In this document: one piece after another, positions 2,062 to 62,455 of the stretch | Layout: each line of letters begins with the position of its first letter | Numbering within the stretch: the first letter of the stretch is position 1 | Notes under the pieces: generated by a model | Databases searched by the model: none | What the model was told of the DNA's origin: nothing | What the model saw: the letters and a program-made list of their open reading frames with translations, nothing else | Program-made: the position numbers and the translations under genes | Assembly (NCBI GenBank): GCA_020444425.1 | Contig: JAHLLB010000017.1 | Span: 2,099 to 66,098 of the forward strand | DNA from: a bacterium | GTDB taxonomy: Bacteria > Electryoneota > Electryoneia > Electryoneales > Electryoneaceae | Length of the DNA: 64,000 nt | Reading direction: 5' to 3'

Positions 2062-3264
2062 TCAGCCGGTTGGTTGGATCTCATACTCCATCGGCGTGAC
2101 GACCTCGGCGGGCTGATCGTTGTGGACGATGACGGTGTCCTCGACGCCGACGCCGCCTTCTGGGAAAATGATCTTCGGTTCGATGGCCAGGACCGTCCCC
2201 GCCTCCAGCGGCTGGTCGAAGCCTTTCGCGATGACCGGCCACTCATCCAGTTCCATCCCGACGCCGTGTCCGATGAAGCGCACCCGGTTGCGTCCCATGT
2301 TCATGAAATTGTCGGCGTACCCGGCGTCGTTGGCTTGCTCAAGTGACCACGCGTACAGCTCGGACGGCACAGCGCCGGCGCGGGTTTTGTCGAGCAGGCG
2401 TTTGTGCAGGTCGACGCAAAAGTTGTGGGCGTCGACGAACTTCGGGTCCAGCTCGCTGACCGGTCCGACGCAGTAGGTGCGGGTCATGTCGGTCATGTAG
2501 CCATCGACACCGGCGGTGTGGTCGCAGATGACCGGCTCGCCGCGTTCGATGACCTTGCCGCCCGCGCCTTTCGGAACCAGCGGGTTGCGTCCCGGCTGGC
2601 CGATGGGGCCGTCGAAGGCGTTATCGACCGCCGCCGACACACCGGCCGCGACGACTCCGCCCGCTTCGGCGTTGAACCCACGGGTGCGTCCGGAGATCTG
2701 GTCGCCATGTTGACGCATGACGAGGTCCATGCGCGCCTGGGCGTCGTATTCGTGCACGCCTTCGCGGATGAACTCGCGTAACGATTCGAATCCGGCGGCC
2801 AATACCTTGCCGGAACGGCGGATGATGTCGAGCTCGGCGGGGGATTTGACGATCCGTTGGGTGCGCACGGTGGCGGAGATGTCGACCAGGTCGGAATCTG
2901 GCCAGACCTTGCGTTCGAGGGCTTTGTACGTTGCGACGGGGAGGACGTCTTCTTCGAGGCCGACGTGTTTCCAGCCAGCGATGCCGGTGTCGCCGCCGAG
3001 CACGGCAAACAGGTGGCCCATGCCCTTGACGATTTCCGGTTGCGCGACGCTGGTGTCGTCGAAAAGATGCAGCCGTCGCCACGCGAAGATGCGTGGGTCG
3101 CCGGTTGCGGGAATGGCGACCGCGCCGGGGAAGACGACGCCGGTGTAGTAGATCATATCGACACGTTGCAGGATCAGCGCACCATCGATGCTCTGTTTGC
3201 GCATCTGGTCTTGCAGACGGCGGATGCGTCCGAGGAGTTCGTCACAGGTGAAGATGGAAGGCAT
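2062..3264 (-). CDS. M24 family metallopeptidase (Xaa-Pro aminopeptidase / creatinase-like)
   Basis: 400 aa ORF; creatinase_N-like N-terminus; C-terminal pita-bread domain with HGVGMELDEWP and metal-ligand context. Confidence 0.85.
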   Translation of the reverse strand: MPSIFTCDELLGRIRRLQDQMRKQSIDGALILQRVDMIYYTGVVFPGAVAIPATGDPRIFAWRRLHLFDDTSVAQPEIVKGMGHLFAVLGGDTGIAGWKHVGLEEDVLPVATYKALERKVWPDSDLVDISATVRTQRIVKSPAELDIIRRSGKVLAAGFESLREFIREGVHEYDAQARMDLVMRQHGDQISGRTRGFNAEAGGVVAAGVSAAVDNAFDGPIGQPGRNPLVPKGAGGKVIERGEPVICDHTAGVDGYMTDMTRTYCVGPVSELDPKFVDAHNFCVDLHKRLLDKTRAGAVPSELYAWSLEQANDAGYADNFMNMGRNRVRFIGHGVGMELDEWPVIAKGFDQPLEAGTVLAIEPKIIFPEGGVGVEDTVIVHNDQPAEVVTPMEYEIQPTG

Positions 3265-3418
3265 GGATGGGTCCGGTCTGGTTTACGAAAAGCAATGCGC
3301 GGGAGTGTAGCGGATGGAAGAAGAGTGGAGCAAGCGGAAAGGGAGCTGGCCGCGAGCGTGATGAGCTAAGCCGGAAGGTGATCCGGCCTTGCTCATCACG
3401 ATTGATCGCAGGCACCGG

Positions 3419-4069
3419 TCAATGATTGCCGGTATGTTGCTCAGCGTTTCCATGCGTGTGCTGCCCGTGCACGACGTCCGCGACGGCTTTGGCAAAGTGA
3501 ATGTAATCGACATATGCTGCTACCCAGGCCCGCCCATCTTCCACGGAGTTTTCCCTTGCTGCGGACAATTCCATCAGGTGGTCGAAACGTTGCTGGACGG
3601 CTTCCCGTGTGTGCGCCGCGATTTTGTCGGCAAATCCTTCGGCGGACCCGTCAACGATCGTCTGGTCCGCCATCAGGATCACCTGGTCGCGAACTGAACC
3701 CGCAGGTTTTAACCCGGTAAACGGTTCGCCCTCACTCGCTCGATGAATTCGCACCAGGGTTTCAAAGAACCAGCGGTCGGCCATTTCGAGCACGTCCTTG
3801 TTCAACTGGCGTATCTCGATTGTTTTGTTGAACGCGTCACGGATAGCTGGCTCATCTGCCGCGTTCACCCACTTCAGAACAGGCGAAACGTCACCATTGG
3901 CCAGCGCGGTTTGTGCGTCGAGAACGACTGGTCCATCCAGCGAATCGCAATGAGCATGTGCCGTGGGGACAATGGATAGCAGCAAAATCCCGGTCAGAAC
4001 GGAACTCAGAGCAGCGATTGTTGATACCCGTGAAGTCATGAGGTTTTTCCTTTCGGTTGGTTGACTCAA
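3419..4069 (-). CDS. hypothetical secreted protein with His-rich C-terminus
   Basis: 216 aa ORF; N-terminal hydrophobic signal (TIAALSSVLTGILLLSIVPTAHA; true start possibly at internal Met ~4039); C-terminal HGQHTHGNAEQHTGNH repeat; no recognisable family. Confidence 0.6.
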   Translation of the reverse strand: MSQPTERKNLMTSRVSTIAALSSVLTGILLLSIVPTAHAHCDSLDGPVVLDAQTALANGDVSPVLKWVNAADEPAIRDAFNKTIEIRQLNKDVLEMADRWFFETLVRIHRASEGEPFTGLKPAGSVRDQVILMADQTIVDGSAEGFADKIAAHTREAVQQRFDHLMELSAARENSVEDGRAWVAAYVDYIHFAKAVADVVHGQHTHGNAEQHTGNH

Positions 4070-4248
4070 TTCAACCTAGGGAGAAAAGAGTTCGGCATAT
4101 TTGACATAAGGCAAAGAGATCTCGGAATGCTGGAACCGGGGAGCTTCAGCAGGTGGCCTCCGTTGGCGTAAAGTGGGCTTTTGTCATGGGAGGGTGAGTC
4201 GTCATTTTGTCGCCAGCAAACAAAATTGTGAACGATCTGGGGTTGAGG

Positions 4249-4815
4249 ATGATGCAGCTTCGTGGACGAGTTGGCTTGGCGGCGTTGTTGCTGATGGCGG
4301 TAATGCTGGCGGGTTGCCTGCCGTTCGGGCAAATGGGGAAGGGCAGAACGCCGGAACAGATTCTGCGGGATGCGTTGCTGAACAGCGTCGAGTTCGACTT
4401 GCAGTCGTTCAGTCCGGACATCGACATCACGCCACAGGGACTGTTCGAACTGCCGAAGATCGATCTCGTGTTCAATGTGGAGATCGGCGTGACGAACAAC
4501 AGCGCGATCCCGTTGTTGGCGAAAGCAGCGGATGTGCGGCTGTTCACCCGCCAGACCGAGTTTACCGAGGCCGAATTAAACGCGGACGACGCCCTCGCGA
4601 CGGCGTCCGTGACGAAGGATTTGGCGATTCCGAAAGGCGAGATGGTGACGGTCCCGCTGCGCATCAAGGCGCCGGTGGAAAAGGTCGGGATGGAACTGGT
4701 CAACCTGATCAACAGCGGCGATTTGTTCTATCGGATTGATGCGCTGATCGACTTCACGTATGAAGGATTCACGTTGCCGTACCAAGTGGTGCTGGACGAG
4801 GGCGGAAATTCGTGA
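4249..4815 (+). CDS. lipoprotein, LEA-2/WHy (water-stress/hypersensitive response) domain family
   Basis: Signal peptide with lipobox LAGC (MMQLRGRVGLAALLLMAVMLAGC); ORF track begins at 4207 but the internal Met at 4249 precedes the signal peptide. Confidence 0.6.
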   Translation: MMQLRGRVGLAALLLMAVMLAGCLPFGQMGKGRTPEQILRDALLNSVEFDLQSFSPDIDITPQGLFELPKIDLVFNVEIGVTNNSAIPLLAKAADVRLFTRQTEFTEAELNADDALATASVTKDLAIPKGEMVTVPLRIKAPVEKVGMELVNLINSGDLFYRIDALIDFTYEGFTLPYQVVLDEGGNS

Positions 4816-4861
4816 GTAGCCGCATTTACCAAGCGAACAAATTCAAGTGCAGGAGGGAACG

Positions 4862-5311
4862 ATGAGTTGGTGGGTAAAATGTACTGACCAGAATTGTCGC
4901 GAACGCAATGTAGCTGCGAATATCGTGGACTTATTGGATAATTGCAGGGACGAATCAGGCATTTTCAGGTGCGCATGCGGTAAGCAAGGCTATGTTGAAA
5001 AGCATTTCAAACTACAGGAAAAAGGCCAAACATGGGATCCGTACCTGGTTGGTGCTATTCGCCTCGGAGAAACAAAGACTGCTACGTATCAACCATTTGT
5101 TTTTCTAACCAGGAACGAAGAAATGAATGATCCTAATGGGCTTTGGTTTTCCTACTACAAGGACACAAGGCCGGAGGGTGGAAGGTTGAAGCTGGGATAC
5201 GGTCCCGGTGGTCCGCCGGTATTAGACAAAGATCAAGTGAAGCGGCTGATTAAAGAACTACTGAAGGTAAATTATCTGAGCAAGCAGGAATTCCTTGACC
5301 TGGTCAAGTAG
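4862..5311 (+). CDS. hypothetical Cys-rich protein encoded in a low-GC islet (orphan)
   Basis: ORF with AGGAGGG Shine-Dalgarno 5 nt upstream of ATG 4862 (MSWWVKCTDQNCRERN...CRDESGIFRCACGK); AT-rich codon usage (aaa, att, tta) contrasting with neighbours; no family recognised. Confidence 0.55.
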   Translation: MSWWVKCTDQNCRERNVAANIVDLLDNCRDESGIFRCACGKQGYVEKHFKLQEKGQTWDPYLVGAIRLGETKTATYQPFVFLTRNEEMNDPNGLWFSYYKDTRPEGGRLKLGYGPGGPPVLDKDQVKRLIKELLKVNYLSKQEFLDLVK

Positions 5312-5363
5312 TCGTCTTGAAATAGACTCCGACTTGCAGTGTGCCTGACTACGGATGCAACAC

Positions 5364-5395
5364 GGCCGCGTCAGTAAAATTTTCTGACGCGGCCA
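5364..5395. terminator. perfect 11-bp stem hairpin (GGCCGCGTCAG...CTGACGCGGCC) between convergent genes
   Basis: Inverted repeat read directly; loop TAAAATTTTC; lies between the 3' ends of the orphan ORF (+) and tlpA (-); only weakly T-rich flanks, so terminator function is uncertain. Confidence 0.45.
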
Positions 5396-5403
5396 CGAAG
5401 TTT

Positions 5404-5462
5404 CTCAAGTCTCAAGTCTCAAGTCTCAGGTCTGATCACTGAGTACTGATCACTGAGTACTG
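5404..5462. repeat. short tandem repeats: heptamer CTCAAGT x3 (+CTCAGGT) followed by 14-mer TGATCACTGAGTAC x2
   Basis: Read directly from sequence 5404-5460. Confidence 0.8.
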
Positions 5463-5469
5463 TCTTTTC

Positions 5470-6027
5470 TCACAGCTTCACGTCTTTCAGCAGCGGACCA
5501 ATCATTTCCATCCACTGGGCCTTATCGCGATAGCCGACGATGGTGTGGGCCACGTCGCCGTTCGCATCGATGATGATCGAGTACGGGATGCCGCCGCGCT
5601 GGCTGGGATCGATCATTTCCTGGTACTGGCTGAACAATGCGCCGTCCTCGCCCATGGCGATCGGGTAGTTCACCGGGTTCTGCGCGAGCCAGTCGTGGAC
5701 CACGCCGACGCCCTTGCGGTCGAGCGAGATACCGACAATGCGGAAGCCTTCAGCCTTGTGCTCGTCATACATCTCGACGAAGTGTGGGATTTCGAGACGG
5801 CACGGCGGGCACCAGGTCGCCCAGAAGTTGACCAGGACGACTTTGCCTTTGTTCTCGTCCAGGCTGAATGTGCCGCCGTCAATGGTGGACACGGTGAAAC
5901 CCGGTTGTTCCTGGGCTGCCTGGGCTTCCGGAACCATGGTGTTCTCGGTCGCATTCGGGCCAAACAGGAAATATGCAGCTACGGCAAACAGTGCAATTGC
6001 ACCGATCAACATCGAAATACGCTTCAT
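5470..6027 (-). CDS. tlpA: TlpA/ResA-like periplasmic thiol:disulfide oxidoreductase (thioredoxin fold, WCPPC)
   Basis: 185 aa; N-terminal membrane anchor; FWATWCPPCRLEIP active-site motif. Confidence 0.85.
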   Translation of the reverse strand: MKRISMLIGAIALFAVAAYFLFGPNATENTMVPEAQAAQEQPGFTVSTIDGGTFSLDENKGKVVLVNFWATWCPPCRLEIPHFVEMYDEHKAEGFRIVGISLDRKGVGVVHDWLAQNPVNYPIAMGEDGALFSQYQEMIDPSQRGGIPYSIIIDANGDVAHTIVGYRDKAQWMEMIGPLLKDVKL

Positions 6028-6031
6028 GACG

Positions 6032-6352
6032 CTATCCGTTCAGTAAGTTGTCGATCTTCTCGGCAAGCTTGTCTTTGGGCAGCAGGCCGTTCACCTGTTC
6101 CCGCACCTCGCCGCCCTTGAAAAACAGGACTCGCGGCACCGACAGAACCTTGTACCGTTGCGCCACTCCCGGCGCTTCGCCAACATCCACCTTGCGAACC
6201 TTGACCTTGCCTTCGTACTCGACGGCAAGCTGTTCCATGATCGGGTCGAGTTTCTTGCACGGCCCGCACCATGTGGCGCCAAAGTCAACTACTACGGGTT
6301 CACCAGACTGCAGAACGTCAGATTCCCAGTTGGCGTCGGTCACTTTTTCCAT
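6032..6352 (-). CDS. trxA: thioredoxin
   Basis: 106 aa; canonical WCGPCK active site and overall thioredoxin length/organisation. Confidence 0.9.
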   Translation of the reverse strand: MEKVTDANWESDVLQSGEPVVVDFGATWCGPCKKLDPIMEQLAVEYEGKVKVRKVDVGEAPGVAQRYKVLSVPRVLFFKGGEVREQVNGLLPKDKLAEKIDNLLNG

Positions 6353-6417
6353 CGGTCCCTCGTCGCTTAATGAGATGCACTCGTATCGAGATGGTTTTTG
6401 GTTCTCTGGAGTCGCGG

Positions 6418-8301
6418 CTATGCACCCTTATGCGTGTTCAGCCAGTCGACCACTTCTTCCGGTTCCATGAACGTGTTGAACCGGGCACGTTCGGTGCCGT
6501 CCGGGCCGACAATCATCACCGTCGGCAACCCGCCAATGTTGTGCTTCTTGCGCAACGCTTCCAGCTCGTCAGTGGACTTGGTGTAGTCCAGTTTCAGCGG
6601 GATGTAGCCCTGTGTCGCGTCGATGACAATGTCCTGATTCCAGACGTTGTGATCAAGTTCGACACACACGCCGCACCAGTCGGCGTAAAAGTCGATCAGT
6701 ACCGGCTTGCCTTCGTCGGCCGCCATCATGAATACGTCGTCGTAGGCGTTCACGTTCCACGGCACGTGGTTTTCGTCCACCTGCTCGGCACCCGCTGCGG
6801 CACCGGAAGTTGCCACCCCGCCGCTGAGGTTGATGTCGTTCATCTCCGCGAGCCCGAGGATTACGTAGAAGATCCCGGCGACAACGGCGACATAACCCAG
6901 CCCCTTGCCAAGCTTGCCGACACCGACCAGCTCAGACCACTTGTTCGCCGCGCCGATGTACAGACCGAGCAGCACGAATGAGGCACCCATCACCAGGTGG
7001 AACAGGGTCGGGCTCAGCAACAGGTTGAGGTAGTAGAGGGCGACGCCGAAGATGATGATGCCGAGGCCCTTCTTGATCTTGTCCATCCAGCCGCCGGCCT
7101 GCGGCAGGGCGGTCATCGCGGCAGTCGAGGTGCCGAGTACGATGAAGAGTACGCCCAATCCGAGCGCCAGGGTCGCCATGTAGAGGAAGCCGAGGACGAC
7201 GTTTCCGGTGTTACCGATCCAGCTCAAGAGGACTAGCAGCGGCGGACCCGCGCAGGGTGCGGCGACGATACCGGTGACACCACCGATGAACATCGCGCCG
7301 ATCAGACCGGACCGTTCCCCGCCCATCATCTTATCCTGGATCGCTGAGGGGACGGTGATGTCGAACGCGCCGAGCATCGACGCGCCCAACGCGACGAAGA
7401 CGGCGACGATGAACCAGAGCACGATCGGGTTCTGCATGAACGCGCCGAACAGCGCGCCGGTCAACCCGGCGATCACGCCCAGAGTTGCGTAGACAATCGC
7501 CAGCCCGATCACGAAGAACAAGCTGAGGATGAAGCCCTTCATCCGGCTGCCGCCCGCAGAACCGCCGACGAAGCCGATAATGATCGGGATCATCGGGTAG
7601 ACACACGGCGTCAGGCTGATCAGGAAGCCAGCGGCGAAGACCAGCAGGAATGCGATCAGGTTGCCGTTCTCGAGAGCGTCGGTGAGCCGGTTCTCGAGCG
7701 ACCCGCCAGAATCTCCAGACACCGCAACCGCAGCTGTTCCGGTAGTTTCCGTTTCCATGTCCGCGAAGGCCGGATGGCTGCTCGGAATGCCGGACGCGCC
7801 TTCCTCGAGCACGGTCAGGTTGATCGTGCCCTCACCACCGTTCGGCAGGAAGCACTTCTCTGGCGGCAGTTCACGGCAGATCTGGTAGCCGTACCAGTAG
7901 GGGATCTCGTAGTCACCTGGCGCGACGGAGGGTGCGACCTCGATGGTGAACATCACCGTCACCGTACCCCGGTACACTTCTTCGCCGGCTTCCAGTTCGC
8001 CGTGCGGCCAGGTGGTGTCGGCGAGGGTGAAGCCGTCCGGCAGGGTCGGCTCCCAGTACAGCAGGCCATAACTCTTGTCGGTGATATGATGATCATTCGG
8101 AACGTCGAGAACGTAGGCGGCCTTGACCGCGTCACCGGCTGCGACGCCGGAAGTTGAGAAGACGACCTCGTAGGGGACCGGCGGTTCGACGACGTCGTCT
8201 TGTGCGTGGACGGTAAATGCGGAAGCGAGCAACAGAGTGGCCATCAACAACAGGGCCGCTGAAGACCGGATCATCGTATCAAATCCCCCAAATCGAATCA
8301 T
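6418..8301 (-). CDS. dsbD: thiol:disulfide interchange protein DsbD (alpha periplasmic domain + TM beta domain + C-terminal thioredoxin gamma domain)
   Basis: ORF 6418..8379. Likely start at Met 8301 (MIRFGG...; GAGGGA SD) or 8271 (MIRSSAALLL signal). Alpha-domain Cys pair CRELPPEKC; TM-domain TPCVYPMIP; C-terminal YADWCGVCVELD thioredoxin motif. Confidence 0.85.
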   Translation of the reverse strand: MIRFGGFDTMIRSSAALLLMATLLLASAFTVHAQDDVVEPPVPYEVVFSTSGVAAGDAVKAAYVLDVPNDHHITDKSYGLLYWEPTLPDGFTLADTTWPHGELEAGEEVYRGTVTVMFTIEVAPSVAPGDYEIPYWYGYQICRELPPEKCFLPNGGEGTINLTVLEEGASGIPSSHPAFADMETETTGTAAVAVSGDSGGSLENRLTDALENGNLIAFLLVFAAGFLISLTPCVYPMIPIIIGFVGGSAGGSRMKGFILSLFFVIGLAIVYATLGVIAGLTGALFGAFMQNPIVLWFIVAVFVALGASMLGAFDITVPSAIQDKMMGGERSGLIGAMFIGGVTGIVAAPCAGPPLLVLLSWIGNTGNVVLGFLYMATLALGLGVLFIVLGTSTAAMTALPQAGGWMDKIKKGLGIIIFGVALYYLNLLLSPTLFHLVMGASFVLLGLYIGAANKWSELVGVGKLGKGLGYVAVVAGIFYVILGLAEMNDINLSGGVATSGAAAGAEQVDENHVPWNVNAYDDVFMMAADEGKPVLIDFYADWCGVCVELDHNVWNQDIVIDATQGYIPLKLDYTKSTDELEALRKKHNIGGLPTVMIVGPDGTERARFNTFMEPEEVVDWLNTHKGA

Positions 8302-8457
8302 GGCTGACTCCCTCGCTGCTGCCGGTGGTGCTGTTTGTTGTCTGTCGGGCAGACAATGTAATCTGTCGTATCCGTGCATGAGAATGCCGTCTCCGGTTCT
8401 CTGGTCATGGTTCGAATGATAGAATTAGGATGCACCCGGCTGAGAGATGATACTGGC

Positions 8458-9045
8458 TCATTGCTCAAGGGGCACGAGGAAGCAGTCGGTGAATCCCCGG
8501 CCCTGGATGACCTGTTTCGCGAACTCGGCGGCGTCGCGTGATTCGAACGGTCCCAGCTGCACCCGGTACAAGCCATCGCCCGGCACGATGGTGACATCGT
8601 AACCCGTTTTATCCCGCGCTCGTTCGGCAGCGCGATCGGCATCCTCGGGATTGCTGAGGCTGAAGACCTGGATAGCGTACGGTTGCGGCGTGACGACGGG
8701 TGGCTCCGGAACGCCACTGATCCGATCCGGACCCAATTCGACGATAAAGGCATCGGGGAATCCGCTCCCCTGCAGTTCATTCATATACGGCTGAACCTCG
8801 TCCCGGGTTTCCCCGTCCCCGGCCCAGACACGGTAGAGACCGTCCCGCCAGTGGATCCCGACCGGTTCGAAGCCGGATCGTTCCAGCTGCGTTTCGGTTT
8901 GCAGAGCGAGGGATTCGTCGCTGACAGCGGCAACCTGAACGTGGAACAGGCCGGCAACCGCGGGTGCCGAGAGTACGCACAGCGCTGCGAGGCCGGCGGA
9001 TACGGCGGGTATGAGCTTACTTTTCCGGATAGAGCTGGATCGCAT
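8458..9045 (-). CDS. SPOR domain-containing protein (two SPOR repeats) with signal peptide
   Basis: Start MRSSSIRKSKLIPAVSAGLAALCVLSAPAVAG at 9045; two repeats resembling SPOR (YRVWAGDGETRDEV..., YRVQLGPFESRDAAEFAKQ); the upstream part of ORF 8458..9327 overlaps the repeat array and is judged non-coding. Confidence 0.7.
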   Translation of the reverse strand: MRSSSIRKSKLIPAVSAGLAALCVLSAPAVAGLFHVQVAAVSDESLALQTETQLERSGFEPVGIHWRDGLYRVWAGDGETRDEVQPYMNELQGSGFPDAFIVELGPDRISGVPEPPVVTPQPYAIQVFSLSNPEDADRAAERARDKTGYDVTIVPGDGLYRVQLGPFESRDAAEFAKQVIQGRGFTDCFLVPLEQ

Positions 9046-9227
9046 CAGCGGGAATCCTGTCTCAGGATCGTGAAGCCTGAAATATGGAGGACAGGAGTCG
9101 ATCAGGCAAACGTGTGGTGTGAATAATGTGGCAATCTCGCGCTCGTGGGCATGGTTTCGCTCTCCCGGCTCACCGTATATTCCGCATCCCGACATCGTAT
9201 ATGGAATTTGACCTGGAATTGTTATCA

Positions 9228-12273: not shown

Positions 12274-12346
12274 GCCGGTGTAGCTCAGTTGGTAGAGCAC
12301 TGGATTTGTAATCCAGCGGTCATCGGTTCGAGTCCGATCGCCGGCT
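12274..12346 (+). tRNA. tRNA-Thr (anticodon TGT)
   Basis: Cloverleaf: acceptor GCCGGTG/CGCCGGC, D-arm TAGCTCAGTTGGTAGAGCA, anticodon loop TTTGTAA, T-arm GGTTCGAGTCC. Confidence 0.92.
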
Positions 12347-12553
12347 CAATGCTTTGCGCAACAAGCCAGGTATTCAAGGTGGCATGCGACACGGAGCAGG
12401 GAGGCTCCCGCCCCAGCACAGGCGGAGGGCCAAAACACCTGGATCGTGAGCGGAGGTCACCGTTTCTGTGTTGTGAAGGCAGGCTGGATACGATCTCTTT
12501 ACAAGCTGAGCGTTTTTTAACCCGACGGAAGTTGTTGGGTTGAAGTGATAGTC

Positions 12554-12636
12554 GGGGGGATGCCCGAGCGGCCAAAGGGAGCAGACTGTAAATCTGCCGG
12601 CGTACGCCTTCGAAGGTTCGAATCCTTCTCCCCCCA
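12554..12636 (+). tRNA. tRNA-Tyr (anticodon GTA), long variable arm
   Basis: Acceptor GGGGGGA/TCCCCCC, anticodon loop ACTGTAAAT, long variable arm, T-arm GAAGGTTCGAATCCTTC. Confidence 0.9.
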
Positions 12637-12720
12637 CATAGTGATTGCAGGCCCGCCCGGTTTTCCGGGATGCAGTGATGCCCGCAGAGCATGGGCCCGA
12701 GCAGGGTGGTCCGAACACAA

Positions 12721-12793
12721 GCGGGAGTAGCTCATCTGGTAGAGCACCAGCCTTCCAAGCTGGATGTGGCGGGTTCGAGTCCCGTCTCCCGCT
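12721..12793 (+). tRNA. tRNA-Gly (anticodon TCC)
   Basis: Acceptor GCGGGAG/CTCCCGC, anticodon loop CTTCCAA, T-arm GGGTTCGAGTCCC. Confidence 0.9.
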
Positions 12794-12900
12794 CAACTGG
12801 GATGTGGGATGTGAGATTCGAGCGAAACGAGCTGGTGGGTAGCTGGTCGTGTGTTGAAGCTGGTCAATGTTCGTAACTCGTAGCTCACAACTGGTTTTCA

Positions 12901-12973
<73 letters not shown>

Positions 12974-13037
12974 CAGTTAGCGATCCAGATGAGAGAGCAG
13001 AAATAGTCAGAGCACCAAGACCGCCGGAGGACGCAGG

Positions 13038-14228
13038 ATGGCGAAGGAAGTATTTGAGCGGACGAAGCCCCACGTAAATGTGGGAACGATTGGTCACGTG
13101 GACCATGGCAAGACGACGTTGACGGCCGCGATGACGTTGGTGTTGTCGAAGGCGGGCGGAGCGGAATTCCGTTCGTTCGATTCGATTGACAACGCGCCGG
13201 AAGAGCGTGAGCGTGGTATCACGATCGCGACGGCCCACGTCGAATATGAGTCGGAGAACCGTCACTACGCGCACGTTGACTGTCCAGGTCACGCGGACTA
13301 CGTGAAGAACATGATCACGGGTGCTGCGCAGATGGACGGTGCGATTGTGGTTGTGAGTGCGGCTGACGGTCCGATGCCGCAGACTCGTGAGCACATTCTT
13401 TTGGCTCGTCAGGTGAACGTGCCGGCGTTGGTGGTTTACATGAACAAGGTCGACCTGGTCGATGACGAAGAGTTGTTGGACCTGGTAGAGCTTGAGATGC
13501 GCGAGTTGCTTTCGGAATACGAATTTCCGGGCGACGACATTCCGATCATCCGTGGTTCAGCGCTTGAGGCGTTGAACAATCCGGATGATGAGAAGGCGAC
13601 GACGTCGATCTTTGAATTGATCAAGGCTGTCGACGATTTCATTCCGGAGCCTGAGCGTGCGACGGACCTTCCGTTCCTGATGCCTGTCGAGGATGTGTTC
13701 TCGATTACGGGTCGTGGTACGGTGGCGACGGGTCGTATTGAGCGTGGCATCGTGAAGACCGGTGAAGAGCTTGAGTTGGTCGGTCTTGGTGCAGCCCGCA
13801 AGACGGTTGTGACGGGTGTCGAGATGTTCCGCAAGATCCTGAATGAGGGTCAGGCGGGTGACAACGCGGGTCTGTTGCTTCGTGGTGTTGACAAGGATGA
13901 GATCGAGCGCGGGATGGTTTTGGCGAAGCCGGGTTCGATTACGCCTCACACGAAGTTCGAGGCCGAGGTTTACATCCTGAGCAAGAACGAAGGTGGCCGT
14001 CACACTCCGTTCTTCGATGGGTATCGTCCTCAGTTCTACTTCCGGACGACGGATGTGACTGGCGCGATCAAGTTGCCTGAGGGCGTCGAGATGGTGATGC
14101 CTGGTGACAACATCAAGATGGATGTGGAGCTGATCGCACCGATCGCGATGGAAGAGACGCTTCGTTTCGCGATTCGTGAGGGTGGCCGTACCGTCGGTGC
14201 CGGTGTTGTCGCGAAGATTATTGAGTAG
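13038..14228 (+). CDS. tuf: elongation factor Tu (copy 1, tufB-like position after the tRNA cluster)
   Basis: 396 aa; [18 protein letters not shown] GTPase motifs; protein identical to the second copy at 29951..31141. Confidence 0.97.
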
Positions 14229-14403
14229 TCTGGCGTAACCGGCAGCAGGTTTTGCCGGAACGTTACACATCGATGTATTCGCGGGCGGCCGTGAATTCGC
14301 AGGGTCGCCCGCGAAGCTTGAATTGAGCGGGTTGGCAGAAGAACGCAACCCGCAGCTTTGCCTAGGCGGGGCAACGGTTCAGGCGTGATGGGGAACAGGT
14401 TCG

Positions 14404-14553
14404 ATGCGTGTTAAGGCGGTAGTGGAATGTGAGGAGTGCCATTCCCGGAATTACACGCTTTCGAAGAACAAGCAGGAACACCCGGATCGTCTGGTCGTGA
14501 AGAAGTTCTGCCCGCGGTGCAACAAGCACACGCTGCACCGGGAGAGCCGCTGA
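14404..14553 (+). CDS. rpmG: 50S ribosomal protein L33 (Zn-ribbon type)
   Basis: Manual translation [49 protein letters not shown] (49 aa, CxxC...CxxC); below the ORF-track size cutoff. Confidence 0.85.
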
Positions 14554-14627
14554 CAAGCGCAAAGTGTTTTGAGGTTTGAGGTTGGGTTGCTCAGGACTCA
14601 CAACTCACAGCTCATACCTGCAGTTAG

Positions 14628-14700
14628 AGGACACTAGCTCAATTGGTAGAGCACCGGTCTCCAAAACCGGGGGTTGGGGGTTCGAGTCCCTCGTGTCCTG
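14628..14700 (+). tRNA. tRNA-Trp (anticodon CCA)
   Basis: Acceptor AGGACAC/GTGTCCT, anticodon loop CTCCAAA, T-arm GGGGGTTCGAGTCCCTC; encoded CCA follows. Confidence 0.9.
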
Positions 14701-14804
14701 CCAAGGGATGATGATTCCCGGCACGGTTGAGGCTGTGTCAACAATGGACCGCCGGACGTTTTGCAGGATGGCAGAATGGCCCGGTCTTCTCCCCGAGGTT
14801 GGAG

Positions 14805-52704: not shown

Positions 52705-54789
52705 GTGAAGTCCATGTACAGGCCACCGTTCGGTCTGGCTCTGCTCGGGTTGCTGGTAGTGCTGTTGATCAGCCTGCCGGTGAGCGCGCAAATGGAGCCG
52801 GACCGTCCCACCCCACCCGGCGAACCTGATCCGGTGACCGTGTATACACGTGTTGCTGATGCGGGTACGGCGGACGATTACGACCACGACTACATCATCG
52901 TCGTCGATCATTCGATCAGCCGTGTGATGGACACCGGCGTGACTTACGTCGACCTCTACACCGTCTACAAGGTGTTGACCGAGAACGGCGTGCAGGCGAT
53001 GAGCGCGTTGGATTGGCATTACGATCCGCGCAGCAGTTTCGTCAAGGTCAACGAAGTGAACATTATTCGTAACGGCGAACGCATCCCGGTAAGCGTGGAC
53101 CTGGTGCAGGATCTGCCCGCTCCGCAGAGTGCAATTTACTGGAGTGACCGGATCAAGAACCTGCAGCTGCCGCGGTTGAAGGTTGGTGACGGCATCGAGG
53201 TTGTCGCGCAGCGCAAGGGCTACAACTACGCGTTGCTCGACGATGCGGCCGGGGAAGCGTCCCGCATGGGTAATGCCGCAGAAGACATCCGCAGCGTGGA
53301 CGATAACAAGTACATCCCGCCGATGGCCGGGCACTACTTCGACATCGTTGTGATGCAGGCCGATGTCCCGATGGTCGAGAAGAAGTATGAGCTGATTCTG
53401 CCGAAGGACAAGTTCCTGCAGAGCCAGATCTACAACGCTCCGGCGTACATGAAGACACACTACGACGCCGAACACATTACCTATACCTGGTGGGCGTATG
53501 ACATCCCCGCGAATCCGCATGAGCCCCGTCAGCCGGGCGAGTGGGATGTGTCGCCGAAGGTGGTGATGACCACGGCGGAGAGCTGGGAGCAGAAGTCGCA
53601 GTGGTTCTTCGATGTGAACAAGAACCAGTTCGAGGTTACCGAGGATATCAAGGCGCAGGTCAACCAGATCCTGAAGGATGCGGGTCTCAACGACAAGTCC
53701 GATCCGATGGACAAGGCGAAGGCGTTGAACCACTGGGTCGCGCAGAACATCCGTTATTCGGGCCAGACGATGGGCGAGGGTGAGGGCTTCACGTTGCACC
53801 CGTCCGACGTGCTGTACGAATACCGTTCCGGTGTCTGCAAGGACATCGCGTCAATGTCGATTACCTTCCTGCGCGCGGCCGGGCTGGATACGTATCCGGC
53901 GATGACGATGGCCGGTGCGACGATTGAAGACATTCCGGCCGACCAGTTCAACCACTGCGTGGTCGCGTGGGAGAAGGAACCGGGCCAGTTTGTCATGCTC
54001 GACCCGACCTGGGTACCGTACAACAACGACGTGTGGTCGAAGCTGGAAACCGAGCAGCAGTACGTGATCGGTCATCCGGACGGTGTCGATCACCTTGGCG
54101 AGATTCGTTACAGCCCGCCGGCGGAATCGCCGCTGTACGCGACCAACGAAGCGACGTTGAGCGAGGATGGTACGCTTTCGGGCACGCTGTACCTGAAGGG
54201 CAGCGGCGCGTTGGACAGCCGTCTCCGCCGCATCTGCTACAACAGCCAGAAGCGCGCGTTGGACGATGTCTTCGCCGGTGTGTTCGCGCACGCGAGCGAA
54301 GCGGTGGTGGTCAAGGACGTCGAGCACCGTGGCCTGATGGACTTCAGCGGTGACATGTGGATCAACATCGAATACGAAATTCCGGGCTACGCGATGATGG
54401 TGGATGGTGGCCTCGAATTCACCCCGATGATCGCGAACGCGGTCAAGGATCATGCTTACCTGTTCCGCGCTGGGGCGGTCAACTGGCCGGAGGATCGTCA
54501 GAACGACGTCTTCCTGTATTATACGCAGCGTCTCGACCTGACCGAGACCATCAAGTTGCCGGGCGGTTACGAGCTGGCAAATGATGTGAACGTGGAAGCG
54601 GTGGACGAAACGTTTGCCAGCTTCGAACAGGATGCGAAGATGGACGGCCGCAAGCTGGTGCTGCATTCACGGACCGAAGTGAAGCGCCGCCAGTTCCCGC
54701 CGTCCGGGTATGCCGGGTTCACCAAAGCGATCGACCAGTTGGATGATTATGCCGGCAGCGTTGTTCGTGTGACGAAGGGAGGTGCGTGA
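52705..54789 (+). CDS. transglutaminase-like cysteine protease superfamily protein with N-terminal DUF3857-like domain; secreted
   Basis: AAGGAGG SD then GTG 52705 (VKSMYRPPFGLALLGLLVVLLISLPVSAQ signal). Transglutaminase core triad: GVCKD (Cys), NHCVVAW (His), MLDPTW (Asp). Confidence 0.8.
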   Translation: MKSMYRPPFGLALLGLLVVLLISLPVSAQMEPDRPTPPGEPDPVTVYTRVADAGTADDYDHDYIIVVDHSISRVMDTGVTYVDLYTVYKVLTENGVQAMSALDWHYDPRSSFVKVNEVNIIRNGERIPVSVDLVQDLPAPQSAIYWSDRIKNLQLPRLKVGDGIEVVAQRKGYNYALLDDAAGEASRMGNAAEDIRSVDDNKYIPPMAGHYFDIVVMQADVPMVEKKYELILPKDKFLQSQIYNAPAYMKTHYDAEHITYTWWAYDIPANPHEPRQPGEWDVSPKVVMTTAESWEQKSQWFFDVNKNQFEVTEDIKAQVNQILKDAGLNDKSDPMDKAKALNHWVAQNIRYSGQTMGEGEGFTLHPSDVLYEYRSGVCKDIASMSITFLRAAGLDTYPAMTMAGATIEDIPADQFNHCVVAWEKEPGQFVMLDPTWVPYNNDVWSKLETEQQYVIGHPDGVDHLGEIRYSPPAESPLYATNEATLSEDGTLSGTLYLKGSGALDSRLRRICYNSQKRALDDVFAGVFAHASEAVVVKDVEHRGLMDFSGDMWINIEYEIPGYAMMVDGGLEFTPMIANAVKDHAYLFRAGAVNWPEDRQNDVFLYYTQRLDLTETIKLPGGYELANDVNVEAVDETFASFEQDAKMDGRKLVLHSRTEVKRRQFPPSGYAGFTKAIDQLDDYAGSVVRVTKGGA

Positions 54790-61339: not shown

Positions 61340-61543
61340 ACTTCCCCCTGTGTTGGGCTGGATGTTTTCTGTACCAGGTAGACCAGTCAGTTCCGATGTT
61401 GCAATCAACAATATAGAATGTAGATTTGGAAATTGCATTTGGATTTGTGAAAGAGTCAAAAAAAGCGAACTACGCTCCGTTCAGGCTCTCATCATCCCTT
61501 GAGTCTTCGGAGCCACAGCAAACGCCGGAAAGACCGATAACCC

Positions 61544-61975
61544 GTGTCCAGATTGGCATCGAACATAGCCCTGGCATCGATTCATGCCTACCGCGCGGTG
61601 TGGCACCGGATCCACCGTTGTCTCGACTGGGCGGGGATCCGGTTTCGCGTCTGCCACTACGATCCGAGTTGCTCTCAGTACGCCCTCGATGCTTTCGAAC
61701 GCTATCCGGCACGCAAGGCGTTCATCCTCACGTGGTTCCGTGTCTGGCGCTGCCACCGTGCGGGCCATTTCCATGTTGTGATGCCGGACCGGCTGGTGGA
61801 AGGGTCCGCTGAGCCGCCACGGTACGAACACTGCTGCGGTGGGGCGATGCAGGTGGGAAACGGTCACGTGAATGGGAGAAACGGTTCGCACCACTCTGCC
61901 AACGGTCACAAGTCCGACCACCATATTGAGGTATCTCCGGAGGCTCGCTTTAAGAAAAGCTCAAGTAAACGGTGA
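61544..61975 (+). CDS. yidD: membrane protein insertion efficiency factor YidD with His-rich C-terminal tail
   Basis: RVCHYDPSCSQYALDAFERYPARKAFILTWFRVWRCHRAGHF matches the YidD CRFxPSCSxY...RCHPxxxGG pattern; ~60-aa His/Gly/Asn-rich tail; the minus-strand ORF 61481..61924 is rejected. Confidence 0.7.
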   Translation: MSRLASNIALASIHAYRAVWHRIHRCLDWAGIRFRVCHYDPSCSQYALDAFERYPARKAFILTWFRVWRCHRAGHFHVVMPDRLVEGSAEPPRYEHCCGGAMQVGNGHVNGRNGSHHSANGHKSDHHIEVSPEARFKKSSSKR

Positions 61976-62388
61976 GAGCTGCCGAAGAGTAGGGAGAAGC
62001 GAATGCAGTAATTGTTGCCCCTGCCCACCAACAGATGGAGGACATCGAGCGCTTCACTTCCCTCCGGTTGCGGAGGAACCCTTGCTGTCAGGTGCCCGAG
62101 TCGTGACGACGACTGCGGGCATTTGACGTTTTTGGAGCTTCCGTTGTCACAAAGTGAAACTATTAGGCCGCAAGATGCGTCTAGCTAACACTGGCCCCGG
62201 GATTGCTCGCTGACAAGTACGGGTTCTGAGTGTATCAAATGTAAATAATGCAAAAAACATCGATACAGTTTTTGGGCTCTCGTGCCGATGTATTGGATAT
62301 AGCCCGGATTTATCTTACTATTGTGAGTGTTCTGATAGCTTGTTCCGAAACCATCATGTTCCTACGCATCGATTCCTTTCGGAACTTC

Positions 62389-62423
62389 GAAGCCGCCCCC
62401 CTACAGGCGGCTTCTTTGTCTCT
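62389..62423 (+). terminator. intrinsic terminator on plus strand
   Basis: GAAGCCGCC-CCCTACA-GGCGGCTTC followed by TTTGTCTCT. Confidence 0.65.
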
Positions 62424-62455
62424 GGGCGTATTCCTGGTGGGTGAGAGGGTCGGAA

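Follow-up and report, generated by a model that had tools for sequence, protein, structure and literature searches.

The locus studied here raises the question of whether a short low-GC islet with a single open reading frame (ORF), lying in a 64-kb stretch of bacterial DNA (64,000 nucleotides, hereafter the window), is a horizontally acquired gene, and, if it is, what kind of gene arrived and by what route.

The low-GC islet and its open reading frame

The initial annotation had described about 500 bp at 40-45% GC within a genome of about 62% GC. The contrast is real and was slightly overstated: we measured 45.8% for the ORF, 46.0% for positions 4820-5330 and 58.4% for the whole window. The stretch holding the ORF has the minimum GC of all 450-bp windows (0.06% of them are equally low), and the GC content at third codon positions (GC3) is 0.49 in the ORF vs 0.71-0.81 in five neighbouring genes, that is, 0.22-0.32 below every one of them. 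Both measures bear out the islet. The other low-GC patches in the window are intergenic, with no further gene islets.

The coordinates of the 149-aa ORF and its own Shine-Dalgarno sequence were confirmed; the NCBI annotation has the same start and names the product a hypothetical protein (Table 1). The cysteines are also arranged as had been claimed, C7-x4-C12 followed by C28-x8-C37-x-C39.

Two further features of the window were recorded. About 1 kb at GC ≤50% without a convincing ORF (61460-62455) lies between a gene for a T9SS-tailed protein and a MetH-like gene and matched no Rfam family at the gathering score. A tRNA cluster, Thr-Tyr-Gly-Thr … Trp (12274-14703), has the classic arrangement flanking tuf.

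Table 1. Features at the locus (positions of the window; L048 is a contig of a close relative).
Feature	Position	Strand	Basis
Native lipoprotein gene (lipobox LAGC)	4249..4815	+	L048 homologue >90% identical up to the breakpoint
Foreign segment, 550 bp, 46.2% GC	4807..5356		blastn and alignment vs L048
Shine-Dalgarno sequence AGGAGGG	4851..4857	+	4 nt before ATG 4862, read from the sequence
ORF, 149-aa protein of an unannotated conserved family (MCB2212112.1)	4862..5311	+	ATG start
N-terminal Cys4 zinc-ribbon-like module, residues 1-46	4862..4999	+	C7, C12, C37, C39
Most conserved block, WFSYYKDTRPEGGRLKLGYGPGGPPVL, residues 95-121	5144..5224	+	invariant or near-invariant columns in A1 and A3
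Native hairpin between convergent genes	5364..5394		-24.9 kcal/mol, z -4.9; conserved in L048
Native tandem repeats, TCTCAAG x3-4 and GATCACTGAGTACT x2	5403..5461		conserved in L048

Comparison with a close relative

An exact-sequence look-up of the adjacent thioredoxin, which is identical in both organisms, led to L048, a 4.5-Mb contig of a close relative with about 90% nucleotide identity. This contig aligns with the window on both flanks of the islet, over 4308-4806 (lipoprotein gene) and 5357-9191 (hairpin onwards), and in place of 4807-5356 it carries an unrelated 240 bp at 57.1% GC, in which no remnant of the 149-aa gene was found. The synteny comparison thus identifies the locus as an indel relative to L048. 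The left breakpoint falls within the last three codons of the lipoprotein gene, which ends in GGNS* in the window and in GGHQ* in L048, and these codons together with the stop (4807-4815) come from the foreign segment. The right breakpoint lies directly before the conserved hairpin. The foreign DNA begins 55 nt upstream of the ATG, and 45 nt separate the stop codon from native DNA. Target-site duplications, for which the initial annotation had proposed a search, were not found at the flanks, nor were convincing terminal inverted repeats at the window junctions.

The gene next to the islet, first described as a stress lipoprotein, does encode a lipoprotein with a lipobox, but no family match stands behind the word stress. 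The neighbours proposed for the other flank, dsbD-trxA-tlpA, were confirmed as the TlpA, Trx and DsbD genes. The hairpin and the tandem repeats that had been noted after the ORF are both real (the TCTCAAG copies lie at 5403-5430, and the repeats are unique within the window). As both are also present in L048, which has no such ORF, they belong to the native spacer and lie outside the insert. Just downstream of tlpA, the copy number of the 7-bp TCTCAAG and 14-bp GATCACTGAGTACT repeats differs between the window and L048, and two independent assemblies of the same organism (L049 and L050) both break inside 5403-5461.

Two more indels distinguish the two sequences nearby. Window 3316-4307 (992 bp), 0.5 kb from the insert, corresponds to 273 bp in L048 and contains a DUF6448 gene (3419-4069, minus strand; Pfam E 3e-55), while 1933-2077 (145 bp) corresponds to 543 bp in L048. 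Between the M24 peptidase gene and tlpA lies a local hot spot for the gain and loss of genes.

A conserved protein family without annotation

The 149-aa protein had been called an orphan, a label that does not survive wider searches. At least 483 homologous protein clusters were found (E ≤ 0.01), all of about 145-160 aa and with a best identity of 57%; an exhaustive profile search of 1.84 billion representatives gave 205 clusters at 50% identity. The family is present in 36 of 185,579 species genomes from more than 10 phyla. The bacterial carriers belong to Binatia, Gamma- and Alphaproteobacteria, Bacteroidota, Desulfobacterota, Planctomycetota, Myxococcota, Nitrospirota, Calditrichota, Actinomycetota, Chlorobiota, Acidobacteriota and Rhodothermota, and the archaeal carrier among the species genomes is one Bathyarchaeia metagenome-assembled genome (MAG). 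Identity within the family is about 50% across phyla, and the gene has a lower GC content than its flanks in 28 of 31 family loci.

Searches of Pfam, NCBIfam, PHROG, PADLOC and PDB sequences gave no match to the protein, and the defence-system models of PADLOC-DB gave none at E up to 10. The family motifs did not occur in the papers searched; every source calls these proteins hypothetical. No domain fusions occur in the family. Longer members were considered as possible fusions and ruled out: they are frameshifts or mis-called starts without additional domains.

Four cysteines, C7, C12, C37 and C39, are conserved family-wide, while position 28 is mostly His. The other conserved blocks are NIVDL, LQE, YxPFVFL and a near-invariant loop, YYKD-R..GG-LK-G-GPGGPPVL. 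The most conserved block (Table 1), which comprises strand 3, a Gly/Pro-rich loop and a short strand ahead of the C-terminal helices, is presumed from its conservation to be a functional site. The dN/dS ratio is 0.06-0.4 (median 0.27) for pairs with unsaturated dS; the gene is therefore real and under purifying selection.

Predicted structure

AlphaFold modelled the protein with a pLDDT of 87.8 and a pTM of 0.81, and a 39%-identical member, for which the values were 95.5 and 0.89, has the same topology. In the modelled fold, a beta-hairpin/helix/beta-hairpin unit with four Cys is followed by four long antiparallel strands and two C-terminal helices. The Cys pairs sit on two beta-hairpin knuckles (strands 3-7/16-18 and 34-36/42-46). 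The zinc ribbon suggested by the initial annotation thus remains a prediction, now supported by the four conserved Cys, two confident models and weak Pfam matches. The latter involve zinc-ribbon models only: Zn_ribbon_RRN7 stays below the threshold (best E 5.7e-4, 5 of 59 members), and Lar_restr_allev and Ogr_Delta score marginally (E 0.05-0.2 in 2-3 of 59 members).

Weak structural matches repeatedly brought up the PC4, YdbC and Pur-alpha folds. The strand-loop-strand-helix motif of PC4, whose sequence itself was checked, looks like the family motif. Membership in PC4 (PF02229) was rejected: the hhalign profile-profile probability was 0.1%, which is not significant, and the family has a median pI of 6.6, which is not basic, so PC4 is an analogy and not a matter of membership. 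It may be that the modelled C-terminal fold matches nothing solved.

The family as integron gene cassettes

Close copies of the gene in unrelated genomes share only the ORF and 15-70 bp of DNA. Two loci from different phyla, Thermodesulfobacteriota (L014) and Thermodesulfovibrio (L015), share 459 bp at 93.9% identity, and another pair (L098 and L084) shares 533 bp. In the flanks of family genes, a GTTRRRY-like core lies about 20 nt ahead of the ATG; at the stop codon stands a RYYYAAC-like core, after which an imperfect palindrome follows. A regex-and-folding scan found canonical attC sites (RYYYAAC...GTTRRRY) and arrays of them at a density of 0.084 per kb in family loci vs 0.034 in shuffled loci. 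Block-shuffled loci and the 64-kb window served as controls, together with the strand bias of the covariance model described below. Across 17 trimmed sites, 74% of cells are paired vs ≤45% with the partners slid, and the L''/L' helix covaries, 8 of 9 pairs changing on both sides.

A home-made covariance model of attC (R1), refined in one round (R2), was scanned over 118 family loci. R2 gave 92 matches, of which 88 lie on the strand of the gene. An attC abuts the gene (≤35 nt from the ORF) in about 25 of the 118 loci, and sites occur on both sides of it in L002, L013, L071, L082, L084 and L106. No attC was detected with this model in about 75% of the loci; as many loci lie on short contigs and the model is home-made, the attC fraction of about 25% is a lower bound. 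The upstream attC consistently ends 17-23 nt short of the ATG, and the one that belongs to the cassette itself begins at the stop codon of the gene. Co-oriented arrays are present in L067 (more than 10 sites), L042, L069, L008, L023 and L032. The array of L032 (2866-5716), a Bathyarchaeia MAG contig, has four attC-like sites (24-40 bits); they precede a partial copy of the family gene located at the end of the contig and suggest an archaeal cassette array.

An integrase was also found. In L002, a divergent recombinase (3237-4193, minus strand) is 62.6% identical to annotated integron integrases and matches IntI4 (2A3V) at E 1.5e-88 and Xer at 1e-28; here the third cassette carries the family gene. 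A homologue of this integrase is the immediate neighbour of the family gene in L006.

These results make it very likely that the protein family is an integron gene-cassette family, a point absent from the initial annotation. Cassette mobility explains why only the gene itself is common to otherwise unrelated loci. On this view, the genes travel as promoterless integron gene cassettes through many bacterial phyla, with at least one archaeal MAG among the carriers.

In L042 (7485-8483) and L043/L008 (533-1531), an IS110-family transposase (DEDD_Tnp_IS110 and Transposase_20) is located 38 nt past the stop codon of the family gene, in the position expected for its attC; attC sites are the targets of the IS1111-attC group.

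The copy in the window

The copy in the window lies outside any integron, its attC being lost or never present. Positions 4600-5600 contain no attC according to the covariance model with filters off (best 4 bits, E 2), and in the whole window there is one match at chance level (16.9 bits, E 0.55), inside an ORF at 54018, 49 kb away. No GTTRRRY cassette boundary was found in 4807-4861, and no integron or CALIN in the 64-kb window. With no attC, no cassette boundary and no nearby integron, the window copy is a stray cassette-type gene.

How the gene reached this site admits another account, to which we give a clear minority of the weight: the copy may not have come as an integron cassette but by illegitimate or homologous recombination after transformation, or as part of a larger island, ICE or prophage that has since decayed, the family being merely sometimes recruited into integrons from defence islands. 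Such an arrival would suit the lack of attC and cassette boundary, the 55 nt of foreign DNA before the ATG, which are longer than the 17-23 nt cassette leader, and the roughly three quarters of family loci without a detected attC. It would also suit the copies in a phage contig (L047) and within an ICE-like element (L044), and traffic from defence islands into integrons has been proposed by Kieffer et al. (10.1101/2024.07.02.601719). However, the insert has the size of one gene, as do the stretches that cassette-borne copies have in common, and no integrase, IS element or other island remnant adjoins it. An integrase may have placed the copy here, with later loss of its attC, or another kind of recombination may have done so.

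Between the stop codon of the lipoprotein gene and the ATG, neither a sigma-70-like promoter on the plus strand nor a terminator was found, which makes read-through expression from the lipoprotein gene the simplest inference. The ORF would be transcribed in this way and translated from its own Shine-Dalgarno sequence, and the transcript would end at the native hairpin.

Genomic neighbourhoods

Neighbour clustering over 105 family loci revealed no obligate partner gene, antitoxin or operon. A toxin-antitoxin module was considered and rejected, there being no conserved adjacent partner across the 105 loci. The commonest neighbours were DUF2779 nucleases (5 loci) and DUF6946 proteins (4), followed by Mrr-like, EcoRV and TIR-like proteins and integrases (3 loci each). 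Genes for defence and for mobile elements abound in the neighbourhoods. The defence neighbours include ThsB-TIR with SLATT or SIR2, OLD/AAA_15-21 ATPases, MmeI, Eco57I, AbiEi, HEPN and PD-(D/E)XK proteins, and the mobile-element neighbours include IS110, IS66 and IS91 transposases, a relaxase and recombinases.

Several single loci deserve description. In a Porticoccaceae MAG (L037, 3065-5741), co-directional genes for Ogg-HhH, QueC, ThsB-TIR and SLATT immediately precede the family gene at a locus where no attC was detected. In L013 (5018-7366), and also in L071 and L072, the family gene stands between two cassettes with attC sites at their borders, one encoding an Mrr-like nuclease and the other an EcoRV-family endonuclease; these look like restriction enzymes carried as integron cassettes, without a methylase in the same cassette. 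In Litoribrevibacter euphylliae (L039, 6452-6601 and 7435-7581), an intergenic element of about 100-150 nt with a terminator is repeated after successive small genes and is not attC-like.

Possible function

Published screens provide the background for a functional reading. Of the cassettes tested from V. cholerae, 18% had anti-phage activity (10.1101/2024.07.02.601686, Darracq et al.), as had "at least one third" of the tested unknown-function cassettes of mobile integrons (10.1101/2024.07.02.601719, Kieffer et al.), and cassettes are enriched in biotic-interaction functions (PMC10661359). The protein would act as an accessory conflict protein, most likely as a stand-alone anti-phage factor, and its zinc ribbon and conserved aromatic/Gly-Pro surface would grip a macromolecular target, either nucleic acid or a phage or host protein. 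A putative anti-phage function is our best guess among the roles considered and a tentative one. Equally tentative is the wider proposal that the family is a new autonomous single-protein system against phages or mobile elements, spread by integrons over more than 10 phyla and Archaea and working even after stranding without attC.

Somewhat less probable, in our judgement, is a counter-defence or regulatory factor in place of a defence effector, either as a binder of a host or rival enzyme (as in Lar restriction alleviation, or Ogr/Delta on RNA polymerase) or as a PC4-like single-strand nucleic-acid binder. The Lar_restr_allev and Ogr_Delta models among the weak zinc-ribbon matches and the recurrent PC4, YdbC and Pur-alpha folds point in this direction, as do the restriction enzymes often found adjacent (Mrr, PD-(D/E)XK, EcoRV) and the accessory position of the gene in one phage. 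However, counter-defence genes concentrate in phages and plasmids, where the family is nearly absent: it occurs in 0 of 50,697 phage genomes and in none of 72,556 plasmids, and 2.9 million viral contigs contained one genuine phage contig with the gene (L047). The PC4 comparison and the pI reported above also argue against this role.

Direction of the event

L048 is the only comparator genome, and it shows a replacement instead of a clean empty site. Among further relatives of the lineage, a TlpA scan of metagenomes found none and the lipoprotein search returned its own cluster only. With a single comparator of this kind, the direction of the change has to be judged from composition and from how the gene family behaves. 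On these grounds, window 4807-5356 was very probably acquired horizontally. The single-gene insertion proposed by the initial annotation is upheld by the absence of the gene at the same locus in L048, by the foreign composition and by the patchy spread of the family over many phyla.

The reverse scenario, in which the gene is ancestral in the lineage, was deleted in L048 and has kept its low GC by selection, appears quite improbable to us. It can appeal to the one comparator, whose site is occupied by other DNA and not empty, and to the other indels of the interval; against it stand a GC3 below that of all neighbours, a nearest homologue that is just 57% identical and comes from other phyla, a family that demonstrably moves as a gene-sized unit, and the lack of any gene remnant in L048. 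A spurious ORF within an AT-rich spacer, to which a 62-aa truncated call by one gene caller in an identical contig might have pointed, is already refuted by hundreds of conserved full-length homologues, a dN/dS of about 0.27 and confident structure models.

As a whole, the locus is probably best explained as a gene-sized acquired insert that carries a stray copy from a cassette-type family and would encode a conflict protein.

Comparison with known systems

Genes of unknown function are stored in very large numbers in integron cassettes, and recent screens showed a sizeable fraction of them to be compact anti-phage systems. The present family is unusually well conserved, gene-sized, stand-alone and unannotated and has a confident structural model, which recommends it for testing in a phage-resistance screen. 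In the window, a cassette-type gene is naturally fixed outside an integron and without a recombination site, and such a stranded copy is informative about the passage of cassette genes into and out of the integron pool.

In its domains, the family resembles the small stand-alone zinc-ribbon proteins Lar and Ogr/Delta, which also have a Cys4 ribbon, about 45 residues long, and are likewise found in the context of mobile elements; unlike them, it adds a 100-residue C-terminal domain. As in the ssDNA-binding fold of PC4, YdbC and Pur-alpha, four antiparallel strands are followed by a helix, and the hhalign register places GGrLK-G-GPGGpPVL+helix of the family against EGEMKPGRK-GISL+helix of PC4.

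Integrases are able to place cassettes in non-canonical positions of a genome, and there they are expressed from host promoters (10.1101/2022.09.11.507474, Loot et al.). Unlike the attC-defined SALINs, the window copy has no attC and no recognizable GTT-type junction; like SALINs and attG-inserted cassettes (10.1101/2022.09.11.507474), it is a lone chromosomal cassette-type gene beside a host gene whose promoter could drive it.

The published integron and BRiC papers, searched for zinc, ribbon and the family motifs, contain no zinc-ribbon protein of this family's kind. The window copy also differs from gcu cassettes and BRiCs (10.1101/2024.07.02.601719; 10.1101/2024.07.02.601686) in its lack of attC. 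In other respects the likeness is close: the gene consists of one small ORF that lacks a promoter and has a Shine-Dalgarno sequence of its own, and many family loci are bounded by attC and stand in co-oriented arrays, some led by IntI, with defence genes as neighbours. Homologues also occur outside integrons without attC, just as homologues of phage-resistance cassettes lie isolated in chromosomes "without recognizable attC sites" (10.1101/2024.07.02.601686; 10.1101/2024.07.02.601719). Integron gene cassettes are thus known as a class, and what is new is a widespread, conserved and previously undescribed family among them.
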